From a virus (Duplodnaviria; Caudoviricetes), in the IMG/VR virus record IMGVR_UViG_3300027861_000023, positions 1-63,275 of that record: a stretch of 63,275 bases of DNA; one strand, given 5' to 3'. Shown piece by piece: positions 151 through 28,060 of the stretch. The position numbers and the translations under genes are program-made. Each line of letters starts with the position of its first letter. The first letter of the stretch is position 1. The notes beneath the pieces are model-generated. The model ran no database searches, was not told the origin of the DNA, and worked only from the letters and a program-made list of their open reading frames with translations.

Positions 151-1101
151 GATTTAGTATTTCCTGATGATGAAGGTTTTGACCTATATAGAAGCGACAT
201 CAACTATGATACATTAACGGATAACGAGGTTGTTCTTGATGAGAATGAAGCTGCGTATATGGAAAAACTTATTCAAAAAAGAATAGCTTTAAGTAAAATG
301 CCAGACGTTGGAAGTTCAAATGCAGATGGGCGAGTAGAAATATTAAAATCTATTGCCAATGACAGCACTCTTACGGACAAAGAAAAAAAGGCTATATATA
401 GAAGATATAGATATATAGATGACCTTCATCATGATTATTTAGGTGATTTTAATAATTCTCCATATCAGATAAAAGCTAGAGAAATTTTAAAGTCTAATAT
501 GACTATACCTGAAATGGATAAAGCATTAAAAGATGCTGTTGATACATTAGATAGAAAAGAAAAAAAAAAAATCCCGCTAACAAAACCAGTGGATGATAGT
601 ATAGCTGTTTTAGAAAATTATGAAGGCTTTATAAACGGAAGTCCTACTGCTGATATTTTTACTAAATTAATTAAAGATAAAACATATTTTCTAGGAGCTA
701 AAGGAACAGGTAATTGGACTATGAAAGATGAAAAAAATGTGCAAACAAGTGTAGATAGTATCGATTGTTCTGGAGCAATATGTACTATTAGAAATGCACA
801 AGGAGGTAAATACGATCTTAATTACACTAATGCCAAAAAGTTTGTGGAGTTAGCGAAACAAAGAAATATTCCGATAGAATCAGCTAAAGATGGTAACCTA
901 ATACTTATGAATGTTGATGGGGATGGTATTGATCATATTGGTTTTATTGTTGTTGACGAAAATGGAAAAAAATACATAGCAGAGTCTTCTAGTTCGTATG
1001 GAGGAACAACAATAACGGAATTTGATAAGAGAATTGCAGACCTTACAAAAAGAAAACCAGAATTTAGTTACGAAATTGTATCAGATACCAAACAAAAATA
1101 A
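1..1101 (+). CDS. C-terminal part (5'-partial) of a virion ejection/cargo protein ending in an NlpC/P60-like cysteine peptidase (peptidoglycan hydrolase)
   Basis: Frame 1 is open from base 1 (DVVTE repeats) to TAA at 1099-1101, so the track's Met at 259 is internal. It has DSIDCSG (catalytic Cys) and DHIGFIV (His) motifs. Same protein sequence as the end of the ORF running off the window at 63275. Confidence 0.75.
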   Translation, partial: DVVTEDVVTEDVVTEDVVTEDVVTEDVVTEDVVTEDVVAEDVVAEDVVAEDLVFPDDEGFDLYRSDINYDTLTDNEVVLDENEAAYMEKLIQKRIALSKMPDVGSSNADGRVEILKSIANDSTLTDKEKKAIYRRYRYIDDLHHDYLGDFNNSPYQIKAREILKSNMTIPEMDKALKDAVDTLDRKEKKKIPLTKPVDDSIAVLENYEGFINGSPTADIFTKLIKDKTYFLGAKGTGNWTMKDEKNVQTSVDSIDCSGAICTIRNAQGGKYDLNYTNAKKFVELAKQRNIPIESAKDGNLILMNVDGDGIDHIGFIVVDENGKKYIAESSSSYGGTTITEFDKRIADLTKRKPEFSYEIVSDTKQK

Positions 1102-4100
1102 TGGATAAAGTAGAAAAGTTATACCAGTTATATTTAAAAGAAGGAATGATTTCTGAAGCAATTTCTTTAGAAAGATTTAGAAATATTACTCCAGATCAAC
1201 AAGCTTCTATATTGGAGGTATCAAGAAAAAGAAAATTAATTTCTCCAGAAACATCTTTAGAGTCTTTTCAAAGTATCTGGGGAAATACAATGCCTCAAGA
1301 ACAGCAAGTTATTAAAGCTCCTGAAGTTGTAGAGAATAATTCATTTTCTGGTAATTCTGACATTCAAGCAAGTTCTGGTGCTTTTCCAAAAGTAGATAAA
1401 GAGGCTATGAATTCTGATTTAATTAAAGAAGAAACCTCTGAAACTGTTACAGAAGGTGTTGAGTATGATGCAAGAGAAGATGAAAGCAGTGTGTTTAGGG
1501 AGAACATTATTATTGATAAAAACGCAACTCCTTTAGAGCGATCTTTAGCTTTTGTAAATGATGATTTGTTTAAAAGAGACGAAGGGCCTGTTGTTGAATT
1601 GTTAGACTATCATTTTCCATTTGAAGAGTATGGTTTCAAATTTGAGGAAAGTGGGATTTTGGATAATGTTACAGTAACTGCTCCCGATGGAGTTACTAAA
1701 GAAACATTTGGTATTGATTCTGGAGGAAAATTATTTTCATCATTTCAAGACAACTCTGAAGAGTCTAGAAAACTTAGAGACTTTATAAGAAATAATGCTG
1801 ATCAAGAGAAAAGAGACGAAGAAATTACTAAAAAGTATTTTTCGGTAGAGGCGATGAATTTTGACATAGATTTTTTTACAAAACAAAACAAACAGCTTAC
1901 AAAAAATGCTACTGATTATTTTGAAAGAAAAAAAATAAATGAAGCTGAACTAACAAGAATGAGAAACTCTCCAGGCACATTTACTCAACAAGAGTATGAT
2001 CTGCAAATTATGGAGAAAAATTATCTTAGAAATCAAGAGAATGTATTAAAAGATCAATACGAACAGTTCCAGGAAACAGCAGGTCAGTTAGACTTAACTA
2101 CTGGTAACTATGTCTTAATGAAAGAGAAGCAAGGTGAAGTAGTCACTACTGCTATTGGTGGCGCATACAACAAGTTTTTAGAGGGTACAAGCAGTATAAT
2201 ATCTACAGGTATTGGATCAGGACTAGATATATATTACGAGGCAGCACAAGCAGCGTATGGCAATGATTATGGTTATACTGAAGAGGAGTATAGAGATGAA
2301 TTTATAAGGGTTTACGAAGGGTATAAAGGATTAGAAGTTCCAGAATCAGCAAAAGAATCTAAAGAAGGGTTTGAGAAATGGACAGCAACCTTAAAAGATA
2401 GCGATGTTGATAGGGTTAAAGCTTCAGCTACTACAGCATCTAAAAGAGATGGTGTCAGAATAAACTATGATGCAGAAGGTCAGGTTATTGGTGAGTCAAC
2501 TCACAAAATGAGAGCAGAAACCGATGGCAATGGAAATTGGTTTGCATTTCCTACATTATTTCAAAACGAAGATGGAAGTTGGGATGACACATATGAGAAG
2601 CAGATTGAAAAATCTGAAAGAAATTGGAAGGGCGCTTATGAAGAGGCTAAAAAAAGAGGTGAGCTTGTAAGTTTTGGATCGGATGAAGAGGCGGCACTTG
2701 CGTATGCAGATGGTTCTTGGAAAGAAAATTACGGTGCAAAACAAACAGCTACATTGGCCTCAGCACAACCTACAGGAGACTTAGAAGGTAATATGTTTAC
2801 TGGTCAATATAAGGTTGTAAAAAACGATCCTAGATTACAAAACCTTAATTTTGATCAATACGACATAGCAAAAGGTGTAAAAATTCCTTTTGAATCAACT
2901 AGTATGATTGGCCAACCATTACTTCAATGGAATAGTCCTGAAGTGTGGAGTAAAGAGGAAGATGATTGGGTAAAAGCTCCAGGATCTTTTGGGGAGTCTA
3001 ATGTTTTTGATCAGGTTGATGCTTTAGTTGGAGACCAGAAAATAAAGGGTAAAAAAAATGCTGTAAAAGAAATCTCAAGAAACCTTCTTGTTGAAACTAT
3101 TGGCGCAGACAACGTAAGTAATCAAAGAATTGAGGCTCAGATGAATCAAGGTGGAGCAGCAGGTATTTTTGCAACTGGATATTACGGAGCATTTGAATCT
3201 GTACCAGCTTTATTACCAATGATTTATGGTGCAGTTAAAAATAGAAAATTAGTAAAACCTAAAGGGCCAGCAGGTAAAAGTTTAAAAGCTATTAAAGGTA
3301 GATTAATTCAATCTTTAAAAAACTATGCTACTGATGGATATCGCCAGACTTCTTTATTAGCCATGGCAGCTCTTCATTCAGACAAACTAAATGAGCAAAT
3401 GGAAAATAACCCTGAGTTTGAGTGGGTTACTGAAAATGAAAAAAAAGCTCTTATTCTACCATTAGCTACCACTTCAGCTATCTTAGAAACTTTAGGGTTT
3501 AGAATGCTTTTAAAGGGTACTTCTGGTACAAAAATATTAACTGGCATTACTACTGCTGCTTTAAGGCAATTGCCAAAAGGAGCAACTCCTGCAATGTTTA
3601 GAAGAGCAGTAGTTAATATAATGGACAATCAGTTTACAAGAAGAGTTGGTAAAACTGGTGTTGCTAAATTTATTAACAGAGCAACTCCTGGTGTGTTAGC
3701 AGAGGCTGAAACAGGTTTTTTTCAAGAATACACCGATATTGAAGGGAAAAACATATATAATGCTTTTAAAGGTAAGGAACTATTTAAAAATCCTGAAAGA
3801 TGGTCTGAAGAGTACTGGACTCAAATAGGTAAAGCCGCAGGAGCAGAGGCTGTGGGTGGTTTTGTTTTGGGAGCGCCAAGTTCTATAACCGCAGCATTTA
3901 CCTCTAAACAAAAAATTACTGAGGTTAATGAAGAGATGATTACGTTGTTTGACAAAATTTTTGTAAACAAGAATAATAGTCAAGATGATGCGGCTACAGC
4001 AATAAAAGCTTATGAGGCTAGTGTTCAGCAGAAAATGGATGAAGGTCTTATAAGCAGATCTCAAGGCGCAGATATGCTTAATGACTTTAGAACTTTACAG

Positions 4101-7100
4101 GCTGCGGCTACAGATGCAAATATAGCTACAGATTTAAATGAAAAACAAAAAGCTAAAGCCATAGAGTTGTTTTTCCAAAAAAGACAGCTAGAGGTTAAAA
4201 TGTCTCAAACAAACAAAAACCTTCCAGAGTATCAAGAACAACAAGAAATGCTTGAGCAAATTGAGTACAGCATTTCTTTGCTAGGAAAAAACCAGGCAGA
4301 TCAACAGTCTCAAAGAGAGATAGAGGAGCAAGGGATTGAAACCTATGTTGAGGTTACAGAAGAAGAGGTAATGGAGGCTTTAAAACAGGATGGCATTGAA
4401 GCTCCAACTGAGCAACAAAAGATAGATAAATCAGACGAACTAAAAAAAACAAAACAAAATGGCTTACAAGAGCAAAGCACAGAGGGAGTGGTTCAGGAAG
4501 AATCTGCCGAAGGTGGCGGAGAGGTGGGACAAACTGTACCCAGTAACGAGCAATCTACCAACGAGAGTACAGAAGAAACCGAAACCAATATTGAAGAGAC
4601 AGCCGAAGAGGAAGTAAGTCCTGAAGAAAAAATAGACTACAAACAGCAAGAAGTTGAAGAAAGAAAAAACCTTTCAGCGCTTCAGCAAAAAGGTAGAGAT
4701 TTAAAAATATTAGGAAAAAAACTAAGCAAAATATACGGAAATTTAATAACTGGTAAAACACAAGGTGATTTACAGGATAAATATGAGGCTGCTTCTGTTT
4801 TAAAAGAGAATGACAAAAAAATAAGCGAAAACGAAAAAGCTATAGATAACTCTAAAAGAAATATTCAAAAAATTAAAGCTGAAGCTAAAGAAAAAGCTAA
4901 AGCAGATAAAAAAGCTAAAAGAAAAAAAATAGAGGTTAAACCTGAAAAGGGGTTATCTGTAACTAAAAAGATTGAACAAAGATTAAAGACTATTTCAAAC
5001 CTTATAGGTCAAAAGAAAATATTAAATAGATTAAAAATATTTGAAAAATCTCCTCTTCCTCAAAATTATTTTAATCTTGGAAAAACAGAGGTAGAGCTGG
5101 TAGATGGTACTACTGTGAAAGTAAAAGATATAATGGATATGTCTTTTAAAGAATTTACAAACTTTGTAGATGGTTTAAATAAATCAAAACCTAAAGTAGA
5201 AGAAAATTATGAGAAATCATTAAAAGGATTGTCTTTAAAAGCATTAAAAGGTCTTAAAAATAGTGTTATTTCTAGTATAAATAAAGGTGAAAAAGAAGTT
5301 AGAGAGTTAGGTAAGAAATTTCTACCTAATTATAAGGGTAAATTAACTAAACAAGATAATGATAATTATACTGCTGCTTCAAATAAAATATTTAATTTAA
5401 AAAATAAACTTGATTTAATTAATAAGGCTATTAGTAAAATAGAATCAGAGCCTAAAGCAGAGCCTAAAGCAGAGCCTAAAGTAGAGCCTAAAGCAGAACC
5501 TAAAGTAGAGCCTAAAGTAGAAGAAGAAGTTGCTGAAGATGAAGAGGTAGATCAGCAGACAAAAGATGACCTTGACGAGTTTTTTGAAGGGCAATCTACA
5601 GAGCAAACAAAGTCTGAGCCTTCAATTAGTTTAAACCGATCTAAGGGTGAATTAAGATTATCTAAAACAGATCCAGTTAAAATAATCAAGGCTGTAAAAA
5701 AAGCTGCCAAAGCAATGATTAAAACTTTTCCTAGTGTAAAGTTTGTTTTGCATGATTCAACAGAGCTGTTTAGTAAAGCTACAAAAGGAAGAAGAGGTAG
5801 AGGTTATTTTGATCCAACTACAAAAACCATACACATAAACATGGAGACTGCTTCTGTGATTAGTGTTGGTCACGAGGTAACTCATGCTATTGCAAACCAT
5901 CTCATATCTACAGATGCAAAGGCAGAGGTTGTTTTTGATAAAGTTTTATCTAGTTTACAAAGAATATTAAAAGGTACAAATCCTGAGTTATTAGAAAAAG
6001 TAGAGAAATTTTCGAAAAGGTATTCAGACAAAACATTAAGAAGTGAAGAGGCGGCATCTGAATTGATGGGTATCTTATCTGAAAACTGGAGTAAACTAAG
6101 TAGACCAAAAAAGAACAAGATTATTGATCTTTTAGATCGTTTCTTCAAAAAGTTACGTATACCATCTCCTTTTAAAAACAACCTAAATAAAACTGATGAG
6201 GCTGTACTTGAATTTTTCAACACTGTTTCTAAAAAAATAAGAGAGGGAGAGTCAATAGCTATTGAGGATGTCAGTATTTTATCGGAGTTAGCCACTGAAG
6301 TTGAAGCCGAAGGAACTAACCCTATAGGTAATCCTACCGAAATAAACCCACCAAGAGCAGGGAGAGAAAGTAAAATTGACTTCAAAGATTCCTATGATAT
6401 GTCTTTGGTTACTCCTAAAAATAAAATAAACTTATCATCTTTAATAGAAAATATAATTAGTAATGATCAGAAAGTTTGGTTTTGGGTAGCTGATCAATTA
6501 GGTTTAGGAGATGGCATGGATGCAGGCCCTAGCTTTGCTTTGCAGCCTGAAAACATAAAGAAAAAAGCAATATGGGCTAGTGGGTTAGATAATAAAAAAT
6601 TAGAGAGAAACATTAGTGCAGCTGATTTTATATTTATTATTAGTGGCTCTCCAGAAACTAGTAAACTATTCAACAAAAAAGTATTTGATAAGTATACTGA
6701 TATCTTGGGTGATTATAACTCGTTTAAAAAGAAAGCATTAGAAACTAATCCTGTTAAGGCTATTAGAGAAACTTTACAAGAGTTTGATAGCTGGGCCGCA
6801 ATGAGAAAAAGTCCAAAAAGAAAAACTTTTTTAATAGCGGTAAATGTGCAATCGACAAAGCCTAACACTAAATTTCATAAATTAGTAAACACATTAGGAG
6901 GTTTTGTAGACCTTCAGTCTTTAAGAGATGGTTTTTACAGAGAAAATAATTTTGTTCAAAATGATATAATGTTGGTTTTAAAACCAACAGGTATAGGTGA
7001 AAAATCTAACCACTCTACATATTCTACAGATATATTAGGAGAGGTAGTAGGTGTTCCTGATATTAAATTAAATGCAGAGGAGATAATGCCTCAAGAAATT

Positions 7101-10100
7101 AAAGATAAAATAAAAGGTAAAAATGTCGCTGAAAAAACTTCAAGTATAGCTCCTTATGGTGGAGCAGTAGGAACTGCGGTAAAGAATATAACCAAACCTT
7201 CTAGAAAAGGTAGAGAGCAACTTCCAACACTTCAAGAAGTAGAAAGTAGAATAACTAACCGAGCAAGATTCATGAAGGTAGTTGAAGACTATGGCATGAA
7301 AAAAGAAGGGTACATGAGTTATAAATCAGATCTTGGGCCACTACAAAGAGCAGTTAGAGAATATGGCTTTAGAATAGAGACCAGGTATATAACTGAAGGA
7401 AAACGAAGAGGTACGCCAACTGGATACTTTCTTACTACAGGTAGAAATGCTGAAGGATTTCCTGTAATGTATAACCCTAAATTAAGAGAGTTAAAAACAT
7501 TAGAAGATCAAAAACCTAAAAGAAAAGGTAGAGAGCAAATGCTTGACAAAGAAAGTGAAGCAATTAAAATTGTAATGCTGGGTAGAGAAGAGGGTGGATT
7601 TACTGATTCAGAAATAAAATACTACTTAAAAAAGAGAGGCTTTAATGCTAAAGATATAAAAATAGCATTAGCTATTGATCCTGAATTGTTTCCTTCATTT
7701 CCAAAAAGCTTTGGTAATGTAATTGGTGGATTTAAGAATGGAGTAAAGTTATTGGCTAAAATAAATAAATTCCATAAAAAAGTAATAGAAGACAATAACA
7801 ACAAAAAGAAATATAAGCAGGAAAGTCTTAATAAATTAGTAAACAAGACTATTGAGTATATGTATACTACACCTGAATATAAAGCTTTAGGAGTAAAAGG
7901 TAGTAGAATGACATCTAAACAACAGGCTTTAGAGGTTGATTTGTTAGATTACTTATCTCCAGGAATTAAAACTTTTAATGGAGCAAGAGTTCGCGCTTTA
8001 AATAAGCAGATTAGAAACACTAAATTTAGTGAGAAAAATTTAAAAAGAATTCAAAGATCTTTAAGGTTGTACATAAGAACTGTAATGCCTAGAAATTTAT
8101 TAGGTAAAGCTGCCTATATAAAATTAATAGACAAAATAAATGCAGTAGACGAAACTAATTATGATGCTGTTGTTGCTGAAATTACCGATATAGCTACAGA
8201 ATTGGCTAATAAAAACCTAAATAAATCTATACTAGATATTTTAAATGAAACCTTTACAGAAATTCAATCAGGCAGGCTTAAAGGTGTTAAGGTAAGTCAA
8301 GAGGTTAAAGATAGAATATATAAAATAGCTCAAAACACTATAGGTTATGTTCCAGGGAAGAAGGGAAGTCAAGGAAAAATTCCAAATAAAGACACTGCTA
8401 AAAACTGGGACATTACTAATGAAGATATGGTTGCGCACTCAGAAATGTTAAGGCAAAAAATTAGAAGTCTTGAAACTGAAACCGTAATAATAAATGGAGA
8501 AAAGGTACTTGTCAACAAAAATTTTACAACTAAAGAGGCACGAGAAATTTCAGATTTAGCTGTAGCGCTTCAGTACAGCGAAGCTTTAGTTAGCTTTGCA
8601 AATAACGATCCTTTACAGACAAATGCACTTGAGCAGGTTTTATTTAACTTACAACAACTGCAAGAGTTTGGTATTTCTGGATTACAACTACAACTTTTAA
8701 GAAACGCAACAGCGTACATGAACAACGCCATAAATATATTGCAAGATATGGGCGTTATTATTAATCCTTTAAAAGAACTTGAAGCTGAAGGAAAAGAGAA
8801 TATTACTCAAGACGATGTTCTTAAAAAGTTTAAAGAGTTAAAAGAAAAAATACGAATTGATGCTGAAAGAGGAAGGGTTAAAAAGGTTGGTGTAAGGAAA
8901 AGATTAAGCTTACAGGTTAGTCAAATTGCTAAGTATGTTAATACAAAACTAGGTACAGCAGAAGATTTAACTGGTCTAATGGATAGAATTTCATTGTCTA
9001 CTGGAGATTTATTTGGTGGTATAACACAAGAGATTGTTACTAAAGAAGTTAGAAAAGCAAGCAGAATTTTTAAGGGAAGGATGCTTAAACATGAGTTAGA
9101 ATTTGGTATAAAAATGACTGAATTGTTTGGTAAAAAGTGGCTGAAAAAGAACAGACAAAACAACAGGCAGACAGATCAAATTATTATAAGTGAAGCAAAG
9201 CAAATTGTATTAGAAAATGAAAGAGACAGAATCTTAAAAGATAAAAAAATGTCTTCTGGAGAACAGCAAGTTTTGATTCAAGCAATTGATAAGGAGATCA
9301 ATAGTAATGTAAAAATGATATCTCAAAACGAGTTGCTGTATTTTAGAAATCAGGGGTTAGATCCATCTTTAAATGCTTCTTTTGAAGCTACTTTCAAGCC
9401 TACACCATTAACTGGTGACCTGGCTTATTTAAATAAAGAGTTTGACAACAAAAATGAATACACATCTAGGATACAAGAAGAAATAACCAAAAAAATAGAT
9501 CCTAAATTAATTGAGTTAGGAGACTGGATGGTAAGAGATTTTTATCCAAAACAATACGAGCATTATAATAACACTTATAAGGAAATATATAGAACTGATA
9601 TGCCTTGGAATCAAAATTATGCTGGTAGACTATATAGAGCATCAGAAACCGACATTGTAGGTTTAGATTTACTAGATATGCAAGGTAATCAAACCTGGAT
9701 TTCAAATGCTAATGCAGCGAGTACAAAATCTAGACAAGAGAGTAATAGTGCTATTATGCAGACAAATGCTGTAGATGCATTGTTAAATTATACTCGTGAC
9801 ATGGAATATTTTGCTGCCTACGCTATTCCAGTTAGAAATATTAATAAAATGTTTTCAGACAAAGCGGTAAAATCTGTTATTTCTGAAAAATTTGGAAAAG
9901 ATATAAATAGGTACATAAACGATCAAATTACAAAAATTGCAAACAAGGGTGCAAAACATCAAAAGGATGCTGGTTTAATTAATTTCTTCAATAATACTTT
10001 TTTATTATCTCGACTAGGTTTAAACCCAACATTAGTATTAAAGCAAATGACATCTTTCGTTACTTATGGTAATGATATTGGATACAATAACTGGTTAGCT

Positions 10101-11336
10101 CAAGCTGGAAAAACTGGATGGAGTGGAATATCAAGTGATATGAGAGAAATAATGGATAACTCTGTTGTTTTACAAGACAGATATGGCGCTCCTATTACTA
10201 GGGTTTTAGAAACTTATCAAGATGAAGGCTTTAAAAAGTTAGATGGACAGAACGATGCGATTAACAAGTATTTTAATAAGGAAAATCAAAACACTTTAGT
10301 AAAAGCTTTAATGGCATTCACTATGGCTGGTGATAAGGGTGCTATTATGCTGGGTGGTATGCCTAACTACAGATACTACAAAGAGCAGTTTAAAAAACAA
10401 AACCCTAATGCCACTAATCAAGAGGCTATTGACTATGCTATTGTAAAATTTGAGGCTGACACATTAAGAACTCAGCAGTCCTACGACCTACAAGACAAAG
10501 ATTACTGGCAAACGAGTAATGCTTTTGCTAGAGCATTTAATATGTTCTTAACCACACCAAAACAGTATTTAAGAAGAGAGATTATAGCTGCTAGAAATTT
10601 TAGCAGGATTGTTCGTAGTGGTGGTAAACAAGGTAAGGGTACTGTTTGGCAAAACGCAAGAACTTTATTTGTGTATCACTCAATAATGCCAATGTTTTTT
10701 CAGTATGTAAGTATGGGACTTCCAGGATTATTTAGAGACAGAAGGGATGAAGACCTTCAGGAGTTGGGTATTGCAGCTTTGTTAGGAAACATAAATGCTC
10801 TGTTTATTATAGGAGATTTAGTTGAGATGTCTGTAGATCAAGCTACTGGTAAACCATGGGGTTCACAAGCTCCAAGTATACCTGTTTTTGAACAAGCTGC
10901 AAGGCTTAATGTTTTAAAAGACAGAGCTGACAAGACTAAAAATCCAATTAAAAAAGCTGAGTATGAAATGAAATACTACTTAGAACTTAGCACTATGGTA
11001 GGAATTCCAGCGCCACAGTTAGTGAGAATGGGGAAAAATTTTACAGAATTGGCTACAGGCGATGTAGATGGATTTGGAGATGCGTTAATGAAAGCATTTA
11101 ACTTCTCAGAATTTGCTCAAGAAGGAAGGAAGGTTAGAGAGGCTAAACCTAAACCAGCAACAATGACTATGGCAGAAATGAAAAAATATCTTCCTGAAGA
11201 GTATGCAGAAATTATGCGAGAGAAAGAAGAGTATGAGTATGAGAACGCAGACGAGATTGAAGAACTGGAATTAGAAAAAGATGAGGCACGAAGAGAGTAT
11301 GATGAGGCAATGCGAGAAATGTACTTAGATAATTAG
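1101..11336 (+). CDS. Giant (3411 aa) virion cargo/ejection protein, large polyvalent-protein type with a zincin-like metallopeptidase domain
   Basis: Last gene of the structural arm. GYFDPTTKTIHIN...GHEVTH (HExxH at 5871-5885) is followed by EEAASE. It has acidic/Lys-rich linkers and a helical C-terminal region typical of podovirus internal proteins. Confidence 0.75.
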   Translation: MDKVEKLYQLYLKEGMISEAISLERFRNITPDQQASILEVSRKRKLISPETSLESFQSIWGNTMPQEQQVIKAPEVVENNSFSGNSDIQASSGAFPKVDKEAMNSDLIKEETSETVTEGVEYDAREDESSVFRENIIIDKNATPLERSLAFVNDDLFKRDEGPVVELLDYHFPFEEYGFKFEESGILDNVTVTAPDGVTKETFGIDSGGKLFSSFQDNSEESRKLRDFIRNNADQEKRDEEITKKYFSVEAMNFDIDFFTKQNKQLTKNATDYFERKKINEAELTRMRNSPGTFTQQEYDLQIMEKNYLRNQENVLKDQYEQFQETAGQLDLTTGNYVLMKEKQGEVVTTAIGGAYNKFLEGTSSIISTGIGSGLDIYYEAAQAAYGNDYGYTEEEYRDEFIRVYEGYKGLEVPESAKESKEGFEKWTATLKDSDVDRVKASATTASKRDGVRINYDAEGQVIGESTHKMRAETDGNGNWFAFPTLFQNEDGSWDDTYEKQIEKSERNWKGAYEEAKKRGELVSFGSDEEAALAYADGSWKENYGAKQTATLASAQPTGDLEGNMFTGQYKVVKNDPRLQNLNFDQYDIAKGVKIPFESTSMIGQPLLQWNSPEVWSKEEDDWVKAPGSFGESNVFDQVDALVGDQKIKGKKNAVKEISRNLLVETIGADNVSNQRIEAQMNQGGAAGIFATGYYGAFESVPALLPMIYGAVKNRKLVKPKGPAGKSLKAIKGRLIQSLKNYATDGYRQTSLLAMAALHSDKLNEQMENNPEFEWVTENEKKALILPLATTSAILETLGFRMLLKGTSGTKILTGITTAALRQLPKGATPAMFRRAVVNIMDNQFTRRVGKTGVAKFINRATPGVLAEAETGFFQEYTDIEGKNIYNAFKGKELFKNPERWSEEYWTQIGKAAGAEAVGGFVLGAPSSITAAFTSKQKITEVNEEMITLFDKIFVNKNNSQDDAATAIKAYEASVQQKMDEGLISRSQGADMLNDFRTLQAAATDANIATDLNEKQKAKAIELFFQKRQLEVKMSQTNKNLPEYQEQQEMLEQIEYSISLLGKNQADQQSQREIEEQGIETYVEVTEEEVMEALKQDGIEAPTEQQKIDKSDELKKTKQNGLQEQSTEGVVQEESAEGGGEVGQTVPSNEQSTNESTEETETNIEETAEEEVSPEEKIDYKQQEVEERKNLSALQQKGRDLKILGKKLSKIYGNLITGKTQGDLQDKYEAASVLKENDKKISENEKAIDNSKRNIQKIKAEAKEKAKADKKAKRKKIEVKPEKGLSVTKKIEQRLKTISNLIGQKKILNRLKIFEKSPLPQNYFNLGKTEVELVDGTTVKVKDIMDMSFKEFTNFVDGLNKSKPKVEENYEKSLKGLSLKALKGLKNSVISSINKGEKEVRELGKKFLPNYKGKLTKQDNDNYTAASNKIFNLKNKLDLINKAISKIESEPKAEPKAEPKVEPKAEPKVEPKVEEEVAEDEEVDQQTKDDLDEFFEGQSTEQTKSEPSISLNRSKGELRLSKTDPVKIIKAVKKAAKAMIKTFPSVKFVLHDSTELFSKATKGRRGRGYFDPTTKTIHINMETASVISVGHEVTHAIANHLISTDAKAEVVFDKVLSSLQRILKGTNPELLEKVEKFSKRYSDKTLRSEEAASELMGILSENWSKLSRPKKNKIIDLLDRFFKKLRIPSPFKNNLNKTDEAVLEFFNTVSKKIREGESIAIEDVSILSELATEVEAEGTNPIGNPTEINPPRAGRESKIDFKDSYDMSLVTPKNKINLSSLIENIISNDQKVWFWVADQLGLGDGMDAGPSFALQPENIKKKAIWASGLDNKKLERNISAADFIFIISGSPETSKLFNKKVFDKYTDILGDYNSFKKKALETNPVKAIRETLQEFDSWAAMRKSPKRKTFLIAVNVQSTKPNTKFHKLVNTLGGFVDLQSLRDGFYRENNFVQNDIMLVLKPTGIGEKSNHSTYSTDILGEVVGVPDIKLNAEEIMPQEIKDKIKGKNVAEKTSSIAPYGGAVGTAVKNITKPSRKGREQLPTLQEVESRITNRARFMKVVEDYGMKKEGYMSYKSDLGPLQRAVREYGFRIETRYITEGKRRGTPTGYFLTTGRNAEGFPVMYNPKLRELKTLEDQKPKRKGREQMLDKESEAIKIVMLGREEGGFTDSEIKYYLKKRGFNAKDIKIALAIDPELFPSFPKSFGNVIGGFKNGVKLLAKINKFHKKVIEDNNNKKKYKQESLNKLVNKTIEYMYTTPEYKALGVKGSRMTSKQQALEVDLLDYLSPGIKTFNGARVRALNKQIRNTKFSEKNLKRIQRSLRLYIRTVMPRNLLGKAAYIKLIDKINAVDETNYDAVVAEITDIATELANKNLNKSILDILNETFTEIQSGRLKGVKVSQEVKDRIYKIAQNTIGYVPGKKGSQGKIPNKDTAKNWDITNEDMVAHSEMLRQKIRSLETETVIINGEKVLVNKNFTTKEAREISDLAVALQYSEALVSFANNDPLQTNALEQVLFNLQQLQEFGISGLQLQLLRNATAYMNNAINILQDMGVIINPLKELEAEGKENITQDDVLKKFKELKEKIRIDAERGRVKKVGVRKRLSLQVSQIAKYVNTKLGTAEDLTGLMDRISLSTGDLFGGITQEIVTKEVRKASRIFKGRMLKHELEFGIKMTELFGKKWLKKNRQNNRQTDQIIISEAKQIVLENERDRILKDKKMSSGEQQVLIQAIDKEINSNVKMISQNELLYFRNQGLDPSLNASFEATFKPTPLTGDLAYLNKEFDNKNEYTSRIQEEITKKIDPKLIELGDWMVRDFYPKQYEHYNNTYKEIYRTDMPWNQNYAGRLYRASETDIVGLDLLDMQGNQTWISNANAASTKSRQESNSAIMQTNAVDALLNYTRDMEYFAAYAIPVRNINKMFSDKAVKSVISEKFGKDINRYINDQITKIANKGAKHQKDAGLINFFNNTFLLSRLGLNPTLVLKQMTSFVTYGNDIGYNNWLAQAGKTGWSGISSDMREIMDNSVVLQDRYGAPITRVLETYQDEGFKKLDGQNDAINKYFNKENQNTLVKALMAFTMAGDKGAIMLGGMPNYRYYKEQFKKQNPNATNQEAIDYAIVKFEADTLRTQQSYDLQDKDYWQTSNAFARAFNMFLTTPKQYLRREIIAARNFSRIVRSGGKQGKGTVWQNARTLFVYHSIMPMFFQYVSMGLPGLFRDRRDEDLQELGIAALLGNINALFIIGDLVEMSVDQATGKPWGSQAPSIPVFEQAARLNVLKDRADKTKNPIKKAEYEMKYYLELSTMVGIPAPQLVRMGKNFTELATGDVDGFGDALMKAFNFSEFAQEGRKVREAKPKPATMTMAEMKKYLPEEYAEIMREKEEYEYENADEIEELELEKDEARREYDEAMREMYLDN
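4459..4617 (+). CDS. Nested 52-aa basic protein in the +1 frame of the giant gene (MAYKSKAQREWFRKNLPKVAERWDKLYPVTSNLPTRVQKKPKPILKRQPKRK)
   Basis: ATG 4459 follows the A-rich leader AAAAAAACAAAACAAA; TAA at 4615-4617. Resembles, from memory, small phage proteins of pattern MPFKSKAQRRW..N.P..A.RW. Local GC and codon usage shift in the host frame. Confidence 0.65.
   Translation: MAYKSKAQREWFRKNLPKVAERWDKLYPVTSNLPTRVQKKPKPILKRQPKRK
5448..5522 (+). repeat. 12-bp coding tandem repeat (EPKA/EPKV x6), linker in the giant protein
   Basis: GAGCCTAAAG(C/T)A units read directly. Confidence 0.95.
7203..7538 (+). repeat. 18-bp direct repeat AGAAAAGGTAGAGAGCAA (RKGREQ) at 7203-7220 and 7521-7538
   Basis: Identical in-frame copies 318 bp apart. 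A degenerate third copy (RAGRES) lies near 6354. Confidence 0.9.
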
Positions 11337-22920: not shown

Positions 22921-23109
22921 TTAAGAGATTATAAATTCTTTTTGGTAGTATTTCCATGCATCTAACATTGTATGCATTCTGTTGCGATATAACGCATCTT
23001 GTGATGACCAGTAACTGGAATCATCTGTTTCAATTTTAATAACATTATCAGACATCATCCAGTTTAGGAATTGTTGATGTTGTAACTGCAATAAATTTAA
23101 TTTTGACAT
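22921..23109 (-). CDS. Hypothetical early protein
   Basis: ORF; likely start MSKLNL at 23109, because the track's start lies in a hairpin. Confidence 0.55.
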   Translation of the reverse strand: MSKLNLLQLQHQQFLNWMMSDNVIKIETDDSSYWSSQDALYRNRMHTMLDAWKYYQKEFIIS

Positions 23110-23142
23110 AAGTATTTGATTTAAATTAGTAATTGATTTTAC

Positions 23143-23177
23143 CCAAAAATCCCACATATCTCTATGTAGGTTTTTGG
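23143..23177 (-). terminator. GAGA-capped hairpin; terminator or processing site
   Basis: Minus strand CCAAAAACCTACATA-GAGA-TATGTGGGATTTTTGG. Confidence 0.65.
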
Positions 23178-23197
23178 TCAAAATTCACTTTCAAAGA

Positions 23198-23623
23198 TCA
23201 GCTACATCTGTAGCTATAATTCTTAGAAATCCAATCACATAAAACATCTTTATTTCTATCATCTAAATCCATGAAGAAGGTTAAAAAGTTAGCAGTTCCA
23301 CCATGTCCATTTCTTGAGCATAGGTTTCGCCATTTGTCGGATAAATGCTTGTGCATATTGGTATCTTTATCCCATACAGATTTCATCCAGTCATGATGAA
23401 AATTGTTTGCGAAATACATGAAATTTACGATATCAAAATTTCTGTTTTCAGATGGAATTAATTTCATGTCATGTACTACAATTTCATTTGTGTTATACTC
23501 ATTCATTAATTGCTCTGCCTGGAACATACTATCTACATTATCGTAAGTTGTAATTAATCCTCCATTACCAGCATACATTTTTAATGTACCATCGTTTTCT
23601 AATTTGTAATCTGTTGCTTTCAT
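23198..23623 (-). CDS. Hypothetical early protein
   Basis: ORF. Confidence 0.65.
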   Translation of the reverse strand: MKATDYKLENDGTLKMYAGNGGLITTYDNVDSMFQAEQLMNEYNTNEIVVHDMKLIPSENRNFDIVNFMYFANNFHHDWMKSVWDKDTNMHKHLSDKWRNLCSRNGHGGTANFLTFFMDLDDRNKDVLCDWISKNYSYRCS

Positions 23624-23796
23624 CTTTTTTCTGTTTTTAAATTAAACTTTTTTAATACTGATTTAAACCAAGTATTTTGCTCATGCGCATTATACTCTTC
23701 TTCTGTTAATACTTCTACTCTAACTGCATCTGAATTTGCTACTGGTAGTAAAAGTATATGCAATCCATTTAGATACTTATACGTTATATTTCTCAT
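23620..23796 (-). CDS. Hypothetical 58-aa early protein directly downstream of the hammerhead
   Basis: Translated by hand (MRNITYKYLNGLHILLLPV...); ATGA overlap with the next gene. Confidence 0.6.
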   Translation of the reverse strand: MRNITYKYLNGLHILLLPVANSDAVRVEVLTEEEYNAHEQNTWFKSVLKKFNLKTEKR

Positions 23797-23835
23797 TATA
23801 AATTGTAGTTTATGTAACTGGTTAATCCAGTTACT

Positions 23836-23898
23836 GGTTAATATCCCTATATCATCTCGACATTAGGATTTCATGCATAAAGCAATCATCAGTTAACC
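23836..23898 (-). ncRNA. Type I hammerhead ribozyme candidate (variant core)
   Basis: Minus strand GGTTAA-CTGATGA-TTGC-TTTAT-GCAT-GAAA-TCCTA-ATGTCGAGATGATA-TAGGG-ATA-TTAACC. It has a 6-bp stem I, CUGAUGA and GAAA cores, stems II and III, and an AUA cleavage triplet. Confidence 0.7.
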
Positions 23899-24236
23899 TA
23901 TTTTGATTTGAGTATTCTAGATACAATCAAATCGTTTATGTTTACTAGCTTACCAAATCCATTACCAGCACGATAGTCAAAGCATAAATTACCTTCAGAT
24001 ATGTTTGGATATATTTCACGAATCCTCTCGTAATAATCATGAGGAAATGCCGTATCAATTTTACGTCTATCTTCATCGCTTACATTGGCTAATATTAATA
24101 AATCTTCCTTATTGCAGTATCTACTCATGGTAGCTATTGCATATAGCAAATCGATTCTTTCATCAGATACATATCCTAAGTATTTTTGGATTTCATCTCT
24201 TTTACTTTCTGTGGTTTTACTCGTAGTTGTTTTCAT
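23898..24236 (-). CDS. Hypothetical early protein
   Basis: ORF; its TAG stop abuts the hammerhead. Confidence 0.65.
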   Translation of the reverse strand: MKTTTSKTTESKRDEIQKYLGYVSDERIDLLYAIATMSRYCNKEDLLILANVSDEDRRKIDTAFPHDYYERIREIYPNISEGNLCFDYRAGNGFGKLVNINDLIVSRILKSK

Positions 24237-24321
24237 AATTTTAATCTAAAAGGTTAATTGTTATTTGTAAATAATTCATGTGCCAGGATGCATATACATC
24301 CAATTGCTACTATATATAATA

Positions 24322-24582
24322 CTATATCCATGTTTCGTACTTCATGTAAAAATCAAATACTTCCTCGTCAAGCACTTCAAAAACTAAATCACTGGTATCT
24401 TCATTACCATCGTAATTGTATAATAATTGTACTATTTCTTGTCCTTCTGAATCTATTAATACAATACATTCATCTTCTGTATATCTGTATATTTCAAAAT
24501 GTCCATAGCTAATACTTTCACTATGCTCTAATTCATGCAAATCCTTACATCTAATGCTATCTAAAACTTTATCTAATGTCAT
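24322..24582 (-). CDS. Very acidic hypothetical early protein
   Basis: ORF, rich in Asp and Glu. Confidence 0.6.
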   Translation of the reverse strand: MTLDKVLDSIRCKDLHELEHSESISYGHFEIYRYTEDECIVLIDSEGQEIVQLLYNYDGNEDTSDLVFEVLDEEVFDFYMKYETWI

Positions 24583-24586
24583 ATCG

Positions 24587-24811
24587 TTATGCGTTTAATG
24601 GTTTTATAAATGTTTCTAATAATTCTACTACTGCTCTATTACTTACTAAAGGATTTGCTCCTGGACTGACTGGAGCATTATTTATTGATTTAATCCTTCC
24701 ATTAATCATCTCAGTCAATTCTATTACTAAAATAGTAGATGCAATGTTCCCTAATTCACGCACATTTTTATGCGCTTTCTTTAATCTTTGGTCATTGTTT
24801 AAGTATGCCAT
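24587..24811 (-). CDS. Hypothetical early protein
   Basis: ORF in the packed operon. Confidence 0.6.
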   Translation of the reverse strand: MAYLNNDQRLKKAHKNVRELGNIASTILVIELTEMINGRIKSINNAPVSPGANPLVSNRAVVELLETFIKPLNA

Positions 24812-24813
24812 TT

Positions 24814-25023
24814 CTATTGGTTTTTGTTGGTTAATAATTCATCTCTTAAATGTACCAGCGCTAACTGATATCCAAAATTCTTCGCTAGTTGCATAAGCAA
24901 TAAATCATTTGCTCCATGATTTGCATCAGCAAATCGCTCCAGGTATTCTTCTGTTGGAGTAGCGACAATCATTCTGTCTAGCTTTTTTAATTCTCTTTCA
25001 ATGTAATCTAATGTGTTTTCCAT
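24814..25023 (-). CDS. Hypothetical early protein
   Basis: ORF in the packed operon. Confidence 0.6.
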   Translation of the reverse strand: MENTLDYIERELKKLDRMIVATPTEEYLERFADANHGANDLLLMQLAKNFGYQLALVHLRDELLTNKNQ

Positions 25024-26002: not shown

Positions 26003-26176
26003 ATGGATGGATTGTATGTAAAAAATGGTAGATTAATTAACGACAGGCAACCTTCTGAAAGTGGAATTGCTAAAGCTTGTTCTATAAAAAAATCCGTTGA
26101 CAGGGAGCGAAAAGTAAACCAAATAGCAGATGGAATTGAAAGAGCAGAAATGAGAAAGTCTTTTAAGTTTTTATAA
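26003..26176 (+). CDS. Hypothetical 57-aa protein (MDGLYVKNGRLINDRQPSESG...)
   Basis: Translated by hand; has its own promoter (25971) and terminator (26196). Confidence 0.7.
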   Translation: MDGLYVKNGRLINDRQPSESGIAKACSIKKSVDRERKVNQIADGIERAEMRKSFKFL

Positions 26177-26195: not shown

Positions 26196-26226
26196 AGAGG
26201 ATCCTACTTGGGTTCTCTTTTTTTTT
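26196..26226 (+). terminator. Intrinsic terminator
   Basis: AGAGGATCC-TACTT-GGGTTCTCT followed by a T run. Confidence 0.8.
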
Positions 26227-26286
26227 GCATAAAGAGCATTTCACTATATTTCAAGCATAAAGCAAGCATAACATAACTAACTAAAT

Positions 26287-26423
26287 ATCAACAACTTAAA
26301 TGCTTTATTATATAATTATGCTCAAAATGCTTACTTTTAAGGATAAATAAAATATATTTAATTTGTATAAAGCAATTATTTATACTGTTATAAATTATCG
26401 AAATTTTACAACATTTTCAACAT
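26287..26423. other. Origin-like intergenic element B
   Basis: Same ordered motifs as 16174-16300. Confidence 0.45.
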
Positions 26424-26473: not shown

Positions 26474-28060
26474 ATGAGCAATTATATTCCAAAGAACCTT
26501 GAGTTCGATCAAGAAGGTCGTAATAAATTAATCAAGGGTATCACAACAATTTCAAAAGCGGTAAAGAGTACACTTGGCCCTCGTGGCAAAACCTCTATAA
26601 TAGAGTCAACCGATCATGTTGGTGGTATGACTATTACAAAGGATGGTGTAACAGTTGCTAACTCTATATTCCTGGAGGATCCAGTAGAGAACCTTGCGGT
26701 TCAGATGTTAAAAGATGCTGCTCGAAGAACAGCTAATTCTGCTGGGGATGGAACGACAACTGCAATTGTATTGACTGAGGCTATTATAAAAGCAGGCGAA
26801 GAGTTTTTAACTCCTAAACATAATATAACTGAGGTTGTAAAAGATATAAATCGTTTAAGTATTCAGATTGTTGACAGTCTTTTACATAAGTCTAAAGAGG
26901 TAACACCATCCAGGCTTCTGGATGTTGCTACTATTTCGGCTAATAACGATCATGACCTGGGGAAGATTATAGCAGATGCTTACGATCAGGTTGGTAAGAA
27001 TGGTATTGTAACAGTTGAGAGGTCACAAAACCATATGACTTTTGCTACTGTAACAAATGGTATAAAGATAGATCGTGGATACACATCAAACCTGTTTATC
27101 ACAAACCAAAAAAATGATGAGGCCGTACTAGAAGATGTTCTTGTATTGGTATGTGACCAGGAGATAAGTAACATCCTTCAGATAGAGAATGTGCTGAGGC
27201 CAGTTATTCAACAAAACAAAAAACTATTGATTATTGGGCCAGTATCAACCAATGTTGTTCAAACATTAGCGTTAAATGTTGTGCAAAATGGATTGAAATT
27301 GTGTAATATTATGCCACCACAGTTTGGATACAAGCAACATGAGCTGATGCAAGACATTGCAATGTCGGTTGGTGCTAAATACTTTTCGGAAAAAACAGGA
27401 GACGATCTTAGTTTGATCACATTTAATGATTTAGGTCATGCGGATAAGGTTATATCTGGTAAAAGTCAGACAGTTATTATCAAAGATAGCCAGATGACAG
27501 AAGATATCGAGAAGAGAATAGAGGATCTAAAAGAACAACAAAGCAACACCGAGATAGTGTCAGACAGGGAGTTTATAGATGAGCGAATCGCTAGTTTATC
27601 TGGATCTATTGGAGCTATTTATGTTGGAGGTAACTCTGATGTGGAGCAAAAAGAGAAGTATGATAGGATTGAAGATGCGGTATGTGCAGTTAGATCAGCA
27701 CTTGAAGAAGGTATTGTCGCTGGAGGTGGAACAACACTATATAAAGTTGCAACTTACATAGAAGATAAGAACAATGGGGTTGCTGGAAAAATACTCGCGA
27801 GTGCGCTTCGCGCACCTTTGTTGCAAATTTATGCAAATGCTGGGTTAGATCTATCAAAATCAAAAAAGGAAAAGCTTATGTATGATTCTGGTTATGAGGG
27901 ATTAAATATAAAAACTGAAGAGTGGGGAGATATGTATAAAATGGGTGTTATTGATCCTTTAAAAGTTACTAAGTCCGCTTTTTTAAATGCAGTAAGTGTT
28001 GCAACAACAATACTTACAACTAATGTAATAATTACTCACGCAAGAGCTAAAGAAGCCTGA
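26474..28060 (+). CDS. groEL: Chaperonin GroEL (phage-encoded, no GGM tail)
   Basis: TLGPRG, ITKDGVTVA, AGDGTTTA, GIVAGGG and GVIDP motifs. Confidence 0.97.
   Translation: MSNYIPKNLEFDQEGRNKLIKGITTISKAVKSTLGPRGKTSIIESTDHVGGMTITKDGVTVANSIFLEDPVENLAVQMLKDAARRTANSAGDGTTTAIVLTEAIIKAGEEFLTPKHNITEVVKDINRLSIQIVDSLLHKSKEVTPSRLLDVATISANNDHDLGKIIADAYDQVGKNGIVTVERSQNHMTFATVTNGIKIDRGYTSNLFITNQKNDEAVLEDVLVLVCDQEISNILQIENVLRPVIQQNKKLLIIGPVSTNVVQTLALNVVQNGLKLCNIMPPQFGYKQHELMQDIAMSVGAKYFSEKTGDDLSLITFNDLGHADKVISGKSQTVIIKDSQMTEDIEKRIEDLKEQQSNTEIVSDREFIDERIASLSGSIGAIYVGGNSDVEQKEKYDRIEDAVCAVRSALEEGIVAGGGTTLYKVATYIEDKNNGVAGKILASALRAPLLQIYANAGLDLSKSKKEKLMYDSGYEGLNIKTEEWGDMYKMGVIDPLKVTKSAFLNAVSVATTILTTNVIITHARAKEA

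Follow-up and report, generated by a model that had tools for sequence, protein, structure and literature searches.

The DNA analysed here, which we refer to as the window, is the whole of an IMG/VR virus record (63,275 nt, G+C content approximately 32%). The replication proteins of this phage resemble those of Flavobacterium, Nonlabens, Polaribacter and Cellulophaga phages, and the element described below comes from a marine flavobacterial-type phage. The element lies in a block of minus-strand ORFs that runs from approximately 26 kb down to 12.3 kb, in which small ORFs of unknown function come first and are followed by genes for Erf, an exonuclease, a primase/helicase and a helicase; the small-ORF part can reasonably be taken, from the gene layout, to be an 'early' operon. 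The element occupies the gap between two ORFs of this block and is on the same strand as both (Table 1). The proteins flanking it gave no Pfam or PHROG family, and the upstream 112-aa ORF, which had no match in either collection, has 15 homologues at 67-93% identity among marine metagenome proteins.

Table 1. Features of the locus between the 112-aa and 58-aa ORFs, with positions numbered on the window.
Feature	Position	Strand	Details
Upstream ORF, 112 aa	23898-24236	minus	TAG stop at 23900-23898; G23898 common to the stop codon and stem I
Stem I, 5' strand	23898-23893	minus	GGUUAA; pairs with 23841-23836
Core C3-A9	23892-23886	minus	CUGAUGA
Stem II	23885-23873	minus	U10.1 (23885), UGC, loop UUUAU, GCA, U11.1 (23873)
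GAAA	23872-23869	minus	G12 A13 A14 = 23872-23870
Stem III hairpin	23869-23843	minus	A15.1-U16.1 and 4 further pairs (inner part); A·A mispair; 5 pairs (outer part); loop GAGAU
Predicted cleavage site	A17 (23842) / U1.1 (23841)	minus	Position from the hammerhead consensus
Stem I, 3' strand	23841-23836	minus	UUAACC
3' hairpin	23834-23814	minus	8 bp; GUAACUGG / loop AUUAA / CCAGUUAC
A/U-rich leader	23797-23813	minus	From the 3' hairpin to the next start codon
Downstream ORF, 58 aa	23620-23796	minus	ATG at 23796

The hammerhead motif and its fold

A first-pass annotation of this DNA had described a variant hammerhead ribozyme fused to a stop codon, and the minus-strand features that it claimed were all found where it had placed them, forming a type I hammerhead at 23836-23898. 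The hammerhead does start inside the stop codon of the upstream ORF, the G of the TAG being the first base of stem I. The consensus core bases are all present and in type I order, and the triplet AUA occupies 23844-23842 of the minus strand. Stem II has only three Watson-Crick pairs, with U23885·U23873 in the place of G10.1-C11.1, the consensus pair of type I hammerheads, which is typical of them and not obligatory.

Both the minimum-energy and the centroid fold calculated by RNAfold for 23811-23900 are exactly the three-way junction plus the 3' hairpin, with stem I open, stems II and III closed by loops, and a single junction. The fold has an energy of -26 kcal/mol and a z-score of -4.25, and was equalled by none of 200 shuffled sequences. 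We also searched with a descriptor consisting of CUGANGA, a stem II of four positions with at most one mispair, GAAA, a stem III of at least 4 bp starting from A-U, H17 and a stem I of at least 5 bp. This descriptor has exactly one site in the whole window, and in dinucleotide-shuffled windows its relaxed form was found in 1 of 150 and its form at the observed stem lengths in 0 of 150. A covariance model of the whole 118-nt cassette detected no second copy in the window or in its relatives, the next matches having E values of 0.43-3.3, and this genome has a single copy of the family.

Conservation in relatives of the same lineage

Relatives were collected by one metagenome scan with an alignment of homologues of the 112-aa ORF, which gave 10 loci, eight of which include the end of the ORF. 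The element stands directly after the same TAG in six of these eight (L009, L011, L012, L014, L015 and L018) and is absent from the other two (L013 and L016, approximately 70% protein identity), where the next gene abuts the ORF and no model match is found. The first 35 nt of the hammerhead are identical (35/35) in five loci, while the DNA of the adjacent ORF is only 74-77% identical in four. No match to phage records was obtained with megablast (23000-25000) or with tblastn (112-aa ORF), and viral contigs searched with the 112-aa ORF, a 141-aa ORF and alignment A1 contained no relatives.

The core is constant throughout these loci, and variation in the element is confined to outer stem III, the fifth inner pair of stem III, the 3' hairpin, one base of loop II and the leader. 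Between the window and the L009 type, outer stem III changes from U-A to C-G, from C-G to A-U and from G·U to G-C, and one outer pair is broken (U-A to C·A); the fifth inner pair is U·G in the window and U-A in relatives. The 3' hairpin has U-A replaced by A-U and G-C by C-G, with one A-U to G·U change in L018, which also has the changed loop II base, and the A/U-rich leader before the start codon varies among the relatives. Both main variants fold to the same architecture. Conservation in relatives, which the first-pass annotation had proposed as a check, is thus found in six of eight loci, with a constant core and compensatory changes in outer stem III and in the hairpin. The element has only two main variants, one of which, the L009-type cassette, is the same in five loci despite their divergent flanks, and recent cassette exchange could therefore explain part of this invariance.

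Between the cassette and their homologue of the 58-aa ORF, the element-bearing relatives contain one more gene, of approximately 117 aa. The window is without this gene, and the N-terminus of its 58-aa ORF is different, which places the cassette at a deletion or mosaic junction.

A wider phage family with covariation in three stems

To go beyond this lineage we used a narrow pattern (CUGAUGA, UUGC-N5-GCAU and GAAA, with stems I and III unspecified), which had six matches in viral contigs; five of them have a stem III starting from A-U, A17, and then a stem I complement of 6-7 nt. The same pattern had 11 matches in cellular genomes, all of them G+C-rich and apparently coding, of which 10 lack a hammerhead; the eleventh, in GC-rich coding DNA, is a dubious case whose loop measures approximately 100 nt. 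A wider pattern, with 10.2/11.2 left free, had 29 matches in 28 stretches of viral contigs, and 23 of these are complete hammerheads.

A covariance model built from the window-lineage hammerhead alone gave 31 sites at E <= 0.01, none of them in cellular loci, which represent 26 distinct sequences. These were aligned structurally by cmsearch, which replaced MAFFT because the latter misaligned the variable stems of the wider family. Every one of the 364 stem cells in the 26 distinct sequences is paired, and double changes are seen in 12 of the 14 pairs, figures that are somewhat flattered by an alignment fitted to the model and by a stem II that is partly fixed by the pattern. None of 500 shuffles reached any of the five measures used, and slid controls paired in only 28-47% of cases. 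Changes on both sides affect five of six pairs in stem I, three of three in stem II and four of five in inner stem III; the two inner pairs of stem II were set by the search patterns, and their variation comes only from the extra covariance-model matches. Covariation in related phages, also suggested at first annotation, is accordingly present in all three stems, and the type I topology in a phage intergenic gap that had been claimed there is strongly backed by these comparisons.

Eleven positions are invariant in 26 of 26 sequences (C3, U4, G5, A6, G8, A9, G12, A13, A14, A15.1 and U16.1). Positions 10.1/11.1 are U/U in 22 of 26 and G/C in the other four, and N17 is A in 22 and C in four. After the 6-bp stem I, A faces A in 23 of 26 sequences; loop II is 5 nt long and begins with U in every one (26/26), and in 23 of 26 its last base is U as well. 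The A·A juxtaposition and the uniform loop II hint at a candidate docking site; a tertiary contact between loop II and stem I, whether loop-loop or a pseudoknot, found no clear support in the family sequences.

Several contigs contain two or three family members within 1-1.7 kb (L025 8274-9210, L027 1769-2771, L036 1667-2669, L033 1653-2686 and L019 1979-3663), compared with the single copy in this genome. U·U and G-C copies are mixed in the L025, L027, L036 and L033 clusters, and the copies in L025 have the same stem I. One further sequence, common to L029, L031, L035 and L042, accounts for four of the six wider-pattern matches that are not complete hammerheads and has the core and a U·U stem II with mispaired stems I and III; it was rejected by the descriptor and may be an imperfect or bulged hammerhead.

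Comparison with Rfam models

The Rfam hammerhead scan proposed in the first-pass annotation came out negative: the window element was not reported by any of the Rfam hammerhead models at its gathering score, or at E <= 10 on either 301 nt or 78 nt, and the other U·U copies of the family likewise had no Rfam hammerhead report. As a control we scanned L025 8260-9225, where three family members occur that have an identical stem I. Of these, the two copies with G10.1-C11.1 were detected by Hammerhead_HH9 (RF02275) at 23.5 and 18.6 bits (E values of 0.0033 and 0.13) and by RAGATH-1-hammerhead (RF03152) at 22.7 and 22.1 bits, with E values of 0.0033-0.5 over both models and scores below their gathering scores of 52 and 56.3 bits, respectively. 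The U·U copy that lies between these two was not reported. Since the G-C copies are recognised and the U·U copy is not, the negative Rfam result reflects a limit of the models and is not evidence against a hammerhead: the U·U pair pushes family copies below Rfam reporting.

All four G10.1-C11.1 copies lie in contigs that also have U·U copies, three of the four have C17, and one covariance model built from the window element finds both kinds. The U·U copies are therefore kin to the G-C hammerheads of the same contigs, which the two Rfam models recognise at 18.6-23.5 bits. The RAGATH-1 model also joins an extra hairpin to a type I hammerhead, with the difference that its hairpin is 5' of stem I whereas here it is 3'; the window element had no match to RAGATH-1, membership of which calls for the 5' hairpin and a score above 56.3 bits.

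The only Rfam matches on the element itself were to C/D-box snoRNAs (11-14 bits), and these are spurious, being triggered by UGAUGA and a terminal stem. Matches to Spy490380c, caiA and others at E values of 0.7-6 were rejected.

The 3' hairpin

A single conserved A (23835) separates stem I from the 3' hairpin, whose pairs have probabilities of at least 0.99. The hairpin is limited to the window lineage, and the other family members are without it. The sequence TTAACCAGT occurs at 23833-23841 and again at 23817-23825, an exact duplication 16 nt apart from start to start, and from this duplication the first-pass annotation had proposed both a downstream hairpin and a competing fold that sequesters stem I. 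The hairpin part of this proposal stands, as its pairing is kept in relatives by way of two double changes and one G·U change. The competing fold does not: at -19.6 kcal/mol against -26.0 it is 6.4 kcal/mol worse and has an equilibrium probability of approximately zero. The duplication is moreover missing from five of the six element-bearing relatives (L009, L011, L012, L014 and L015), where the hairpin sequence differs.

We rejected the hairpin as a terminator, because no run of U follows it and a terminator scan listed none there. Pairing of loop II with the hairpin loop is possible over four of five bp in the window, five of five in L018 and three in the L009 type, and loop II could also pair with the AUAAA after the hairpin, although loops made only of A and U match this well readily by chance. 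We would guess at a protective role for the hairpin, either for the 3' product or for stem I, which it may shield from sequence further downstream. As for the coupling to ribosome termination that was suggested earlier, it could hold only trivially, through a ribosome that sits on the stop codon and so covers stem I.

Sequencing-run data

All sampled words of 23780-23960 were present in 19 runs from 18 studies, 17 of these 19 being possible sources of this DNA and not independent support. The element was unchanged in runs X9 and X10, and no raw DNA reads of run X21 could be placed on it. One RNA library (X20) contained 40% of the sampled words of the same interval and gave a single contig, 23856-24151, at a depth of 4.2. 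This contig ends 14 nt short of the predicted cut, on its upstream side. As RNA ends are not visible in contigs and such a library may also contain DNA, it speaks neither for nor against cleavage or transcription.

Published phage hammerheads

In the parts of their paper that bear on this element, Perreault et al. 2011 (PMC3088659) describe hundreds of bacterial hammerheads, many in prophages. In operons of phages and prophages these lie beside one gene or a short run of genes, whose identity varies, and the authors propose that long phage transcripts are processed to gene-length messages. They also describe natural U10.1-U11.1 hammerheads, in which the mismatch can open stem II, and they report U·U as the best-tolerated mispair, shown earlier to support more activity than any other and having active natural examples, while some phage variants are slow. 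The first-pass annotation had called the U·U at 10.1-11.1 unusual, a description that does not hold, given the natural examples in that paper (PMC3088659) and the 22 of 26 distinct family members that have U·U. According to the same source, a routine filter rejected mispairs adjoining the core, and this may explain the thin representation of U·U copies in databases.

The window element has in common with the phage type I hammerheads described there (PMC3088659) the core, the three stems, the open stem I, the position in a co-directional operon gap, the inconstant adjacent genes and the U·U that opens stem II; relative to that type, the window lineage adds the 8-bp hairpin 3' of stem I. A further comparison is HHphage of haloviruses HF1/HF2, for which the paper gives a mapped 5' end near the cleavage site (PMC3088659). 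HHphage differs in being another structural variant, suited to high salt, from an archaeal virus.

Alternative explanations

The idea that a short consensus was matched by chance in AT-rich DNA has in its favour only that the core is short and that very many windows were scanned, and the rarity of the motif in shuffles, its conservation in relatives and the covarying family refute it for practical purposes, so that we give it a negligible probability. A closer rival is a conserved, folded RNA that descends from a hammerhead, has lost useful cutting activity and acts as a structured 3' end or as a spacer between genes. Such a descendant would fit the replacement of the most conserved stem pair by U·U, the three Watson-Crick pairs of stem II, the lack of an Rfam match for the window element and the slowness of some phage variants (PMC3088659). 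Decay would not, however, preserve the core, and 13 core positions are intact in all 26 family sequences; U·U is moreover the mispair reported as best tolerated and is found in active natural examples (PMC3088659). We regard an inactive descendant as unlikely.

The remaining two rivals assign another role to parts of the same sequence. According to one, 23868-23897 is a DNA-level signal, an internal promoter or operator in common with the divergent control region at 26.2-26.4 kb, and the fold is incidental. This stretch and 26248-26277 are on the same strand and are 25/30 identical, with an exact core of 17/18 nt, and the second copy is conserved in relatives and located where promoters are expected. 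A DNA signal predicts neither the compensatory changes in stems I-III over 26 sequences nor the fixed A15.1-U16.1/H17 geometry, however; the copy at 26248-26277 is not found by the covariance models and has lost the stem II pairing in relatives, and a sigma-70-type scan, which excludes Bacteroidota-type promoters, lists no site in 23811-23900. This makes a purely DNA-level signal very unlikely. The other is a switch, in which the duplicated TTAACCAGT offers stem I two partners, so that the downstream hairpin, or else the terminating ribosome, controls cleavage. The exactness of the duplication agrees with this, as does the start of stem I in the stop codon, where a terminating ribosome would presumably cover it. 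Against these points, the alternative fold is energetically far off, the same five relatives are without the duplication, and the proper 3' strand of stem I is transcribed before the second UUAACC, all of which leaves a switch highly improbable.

Proposed mechanism and significance

We conclude that the element is very probably a genuine self-cutting hammerhead between two small genes. More specifically, the minus-strand transcript of 23836-23898 is likely to be a type I hammerhead of a U10.1·U11.1 phage subfamily, usually with A17, and is predicted from sequence and from the modelled fold to cut itself. By the same comparisons the element is selected, with its pairing and its core under selection.

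By analogy with hammerhead chemistry, and with the phage hammerheads as described by Perreault et al. (PMC3088659), self-cleavage would leave defined ends and would split the polycistron into pieces of separate stability. The co-directional small-gene block would be transcribed through the hammerhead, and the RNA would cut itself between A23842 and U23841. The 5' product would be the message of the 112-aa ORF, keeping its stop codon and a structured tail of 56 nt (stems II and III) and ending in a 2',3'-cyclic phosphate. The 3' product would have its 5'-OH on U23841, with the 8-bp hairpin starting 7 nt further on, and would have a leader of 45 nt (23841-23797) before the next start codon. In eight of eight cases examined the upstream stop lies at -6 to +20 nt from the start of the hammerhead and the next ATG 13-40 nt past its end; filling of the stop-to-ATG gap in each case fits the splitting of messages with short leaders.

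A bolder reading, which we consider doubtful, is that U10.1·U11.1/A17 hammerheads form a distinct, phage-specific working class, that two grades of hammerhead set the survival of message segments, and that the hairpin of this lineage caps the 5'-OH product. The traits that would count for such a class are the 6-bp stem I closed by A·A, the 5-nt loop II that starts with U and also ends with U in 23 of 26, the G-C paralogues in the same operons, three of the four with C17, and the failure of present Rfam models to register the class. If the two-grade reading is true, the grades would differ in cutting rate or in ion needs.

What is new here is modest: the lineage-limited 3' hairpin, a U·U/A17 group of this size and uniformity, and the failure of Rfam to see this group. 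Phage intergenic hammerheads and U·U variants are already known from the work of Perreault et al. (PMC3088659), and among those described there the element is an ordinary example. For annotation, it gives an abundant lineage of marine phages a well-documented hammerhead, and for databases it points to a sizeable group of U·U 10.1/11.1 phage hammerheads that escapes Rfam and is missed by standard annotation. For biology, it offers a compact case for the idea of 2011 that phage polycistrons are cut into gene-sized pieces, with natural controls available in relatives that have no ribozyme (L013 and L016) and in relatives that have a different hairpin.

The 26.2-kb copy and other features of the window

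The minus-strand stretch 26248-26277, for all its identity to the 5' half of the hammerhead, has no CUGAUGA core, no stem III and no partner for stem I. It lies in a mostly non-coding region of approximately 1.2 kb between the divergent gene blocks, with weaker copies near 26364-26379 and 26215-26243, and is kept in L009, L011 and L015, where the would-be stem II pair is lost through a C-to-T change. It may represent either a promoter-type signal or a ribozyme copy that has decayed, and since a sequence this similar does not form a hammerhead, the 5' half of the hammerhead may also carry a second meaning at the level of DNA. A scan with the 18-nt motif in common with 26248-26265 gave five unrelated, apparently coding matches, which were set aside.

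Elsewhere in the window, a plus-strand ORF of 3411 aa (1101-11336) had no PHROG or Pfam match. Inspection by eye showed a G+C-rich inverted repeat with nine T behind it at approximately 26199-26230 on the plus strand, just past the small ORF 26003-26176, and it looks like an intrinsic terminator. The phage also encodes a GroEL-type chaperonin (26474-28060, plus strand; PHROG 5725, E value 5e-132), whose gene is divergent from the small-gene block, and the same layout is present in GenBank MW202828.1.
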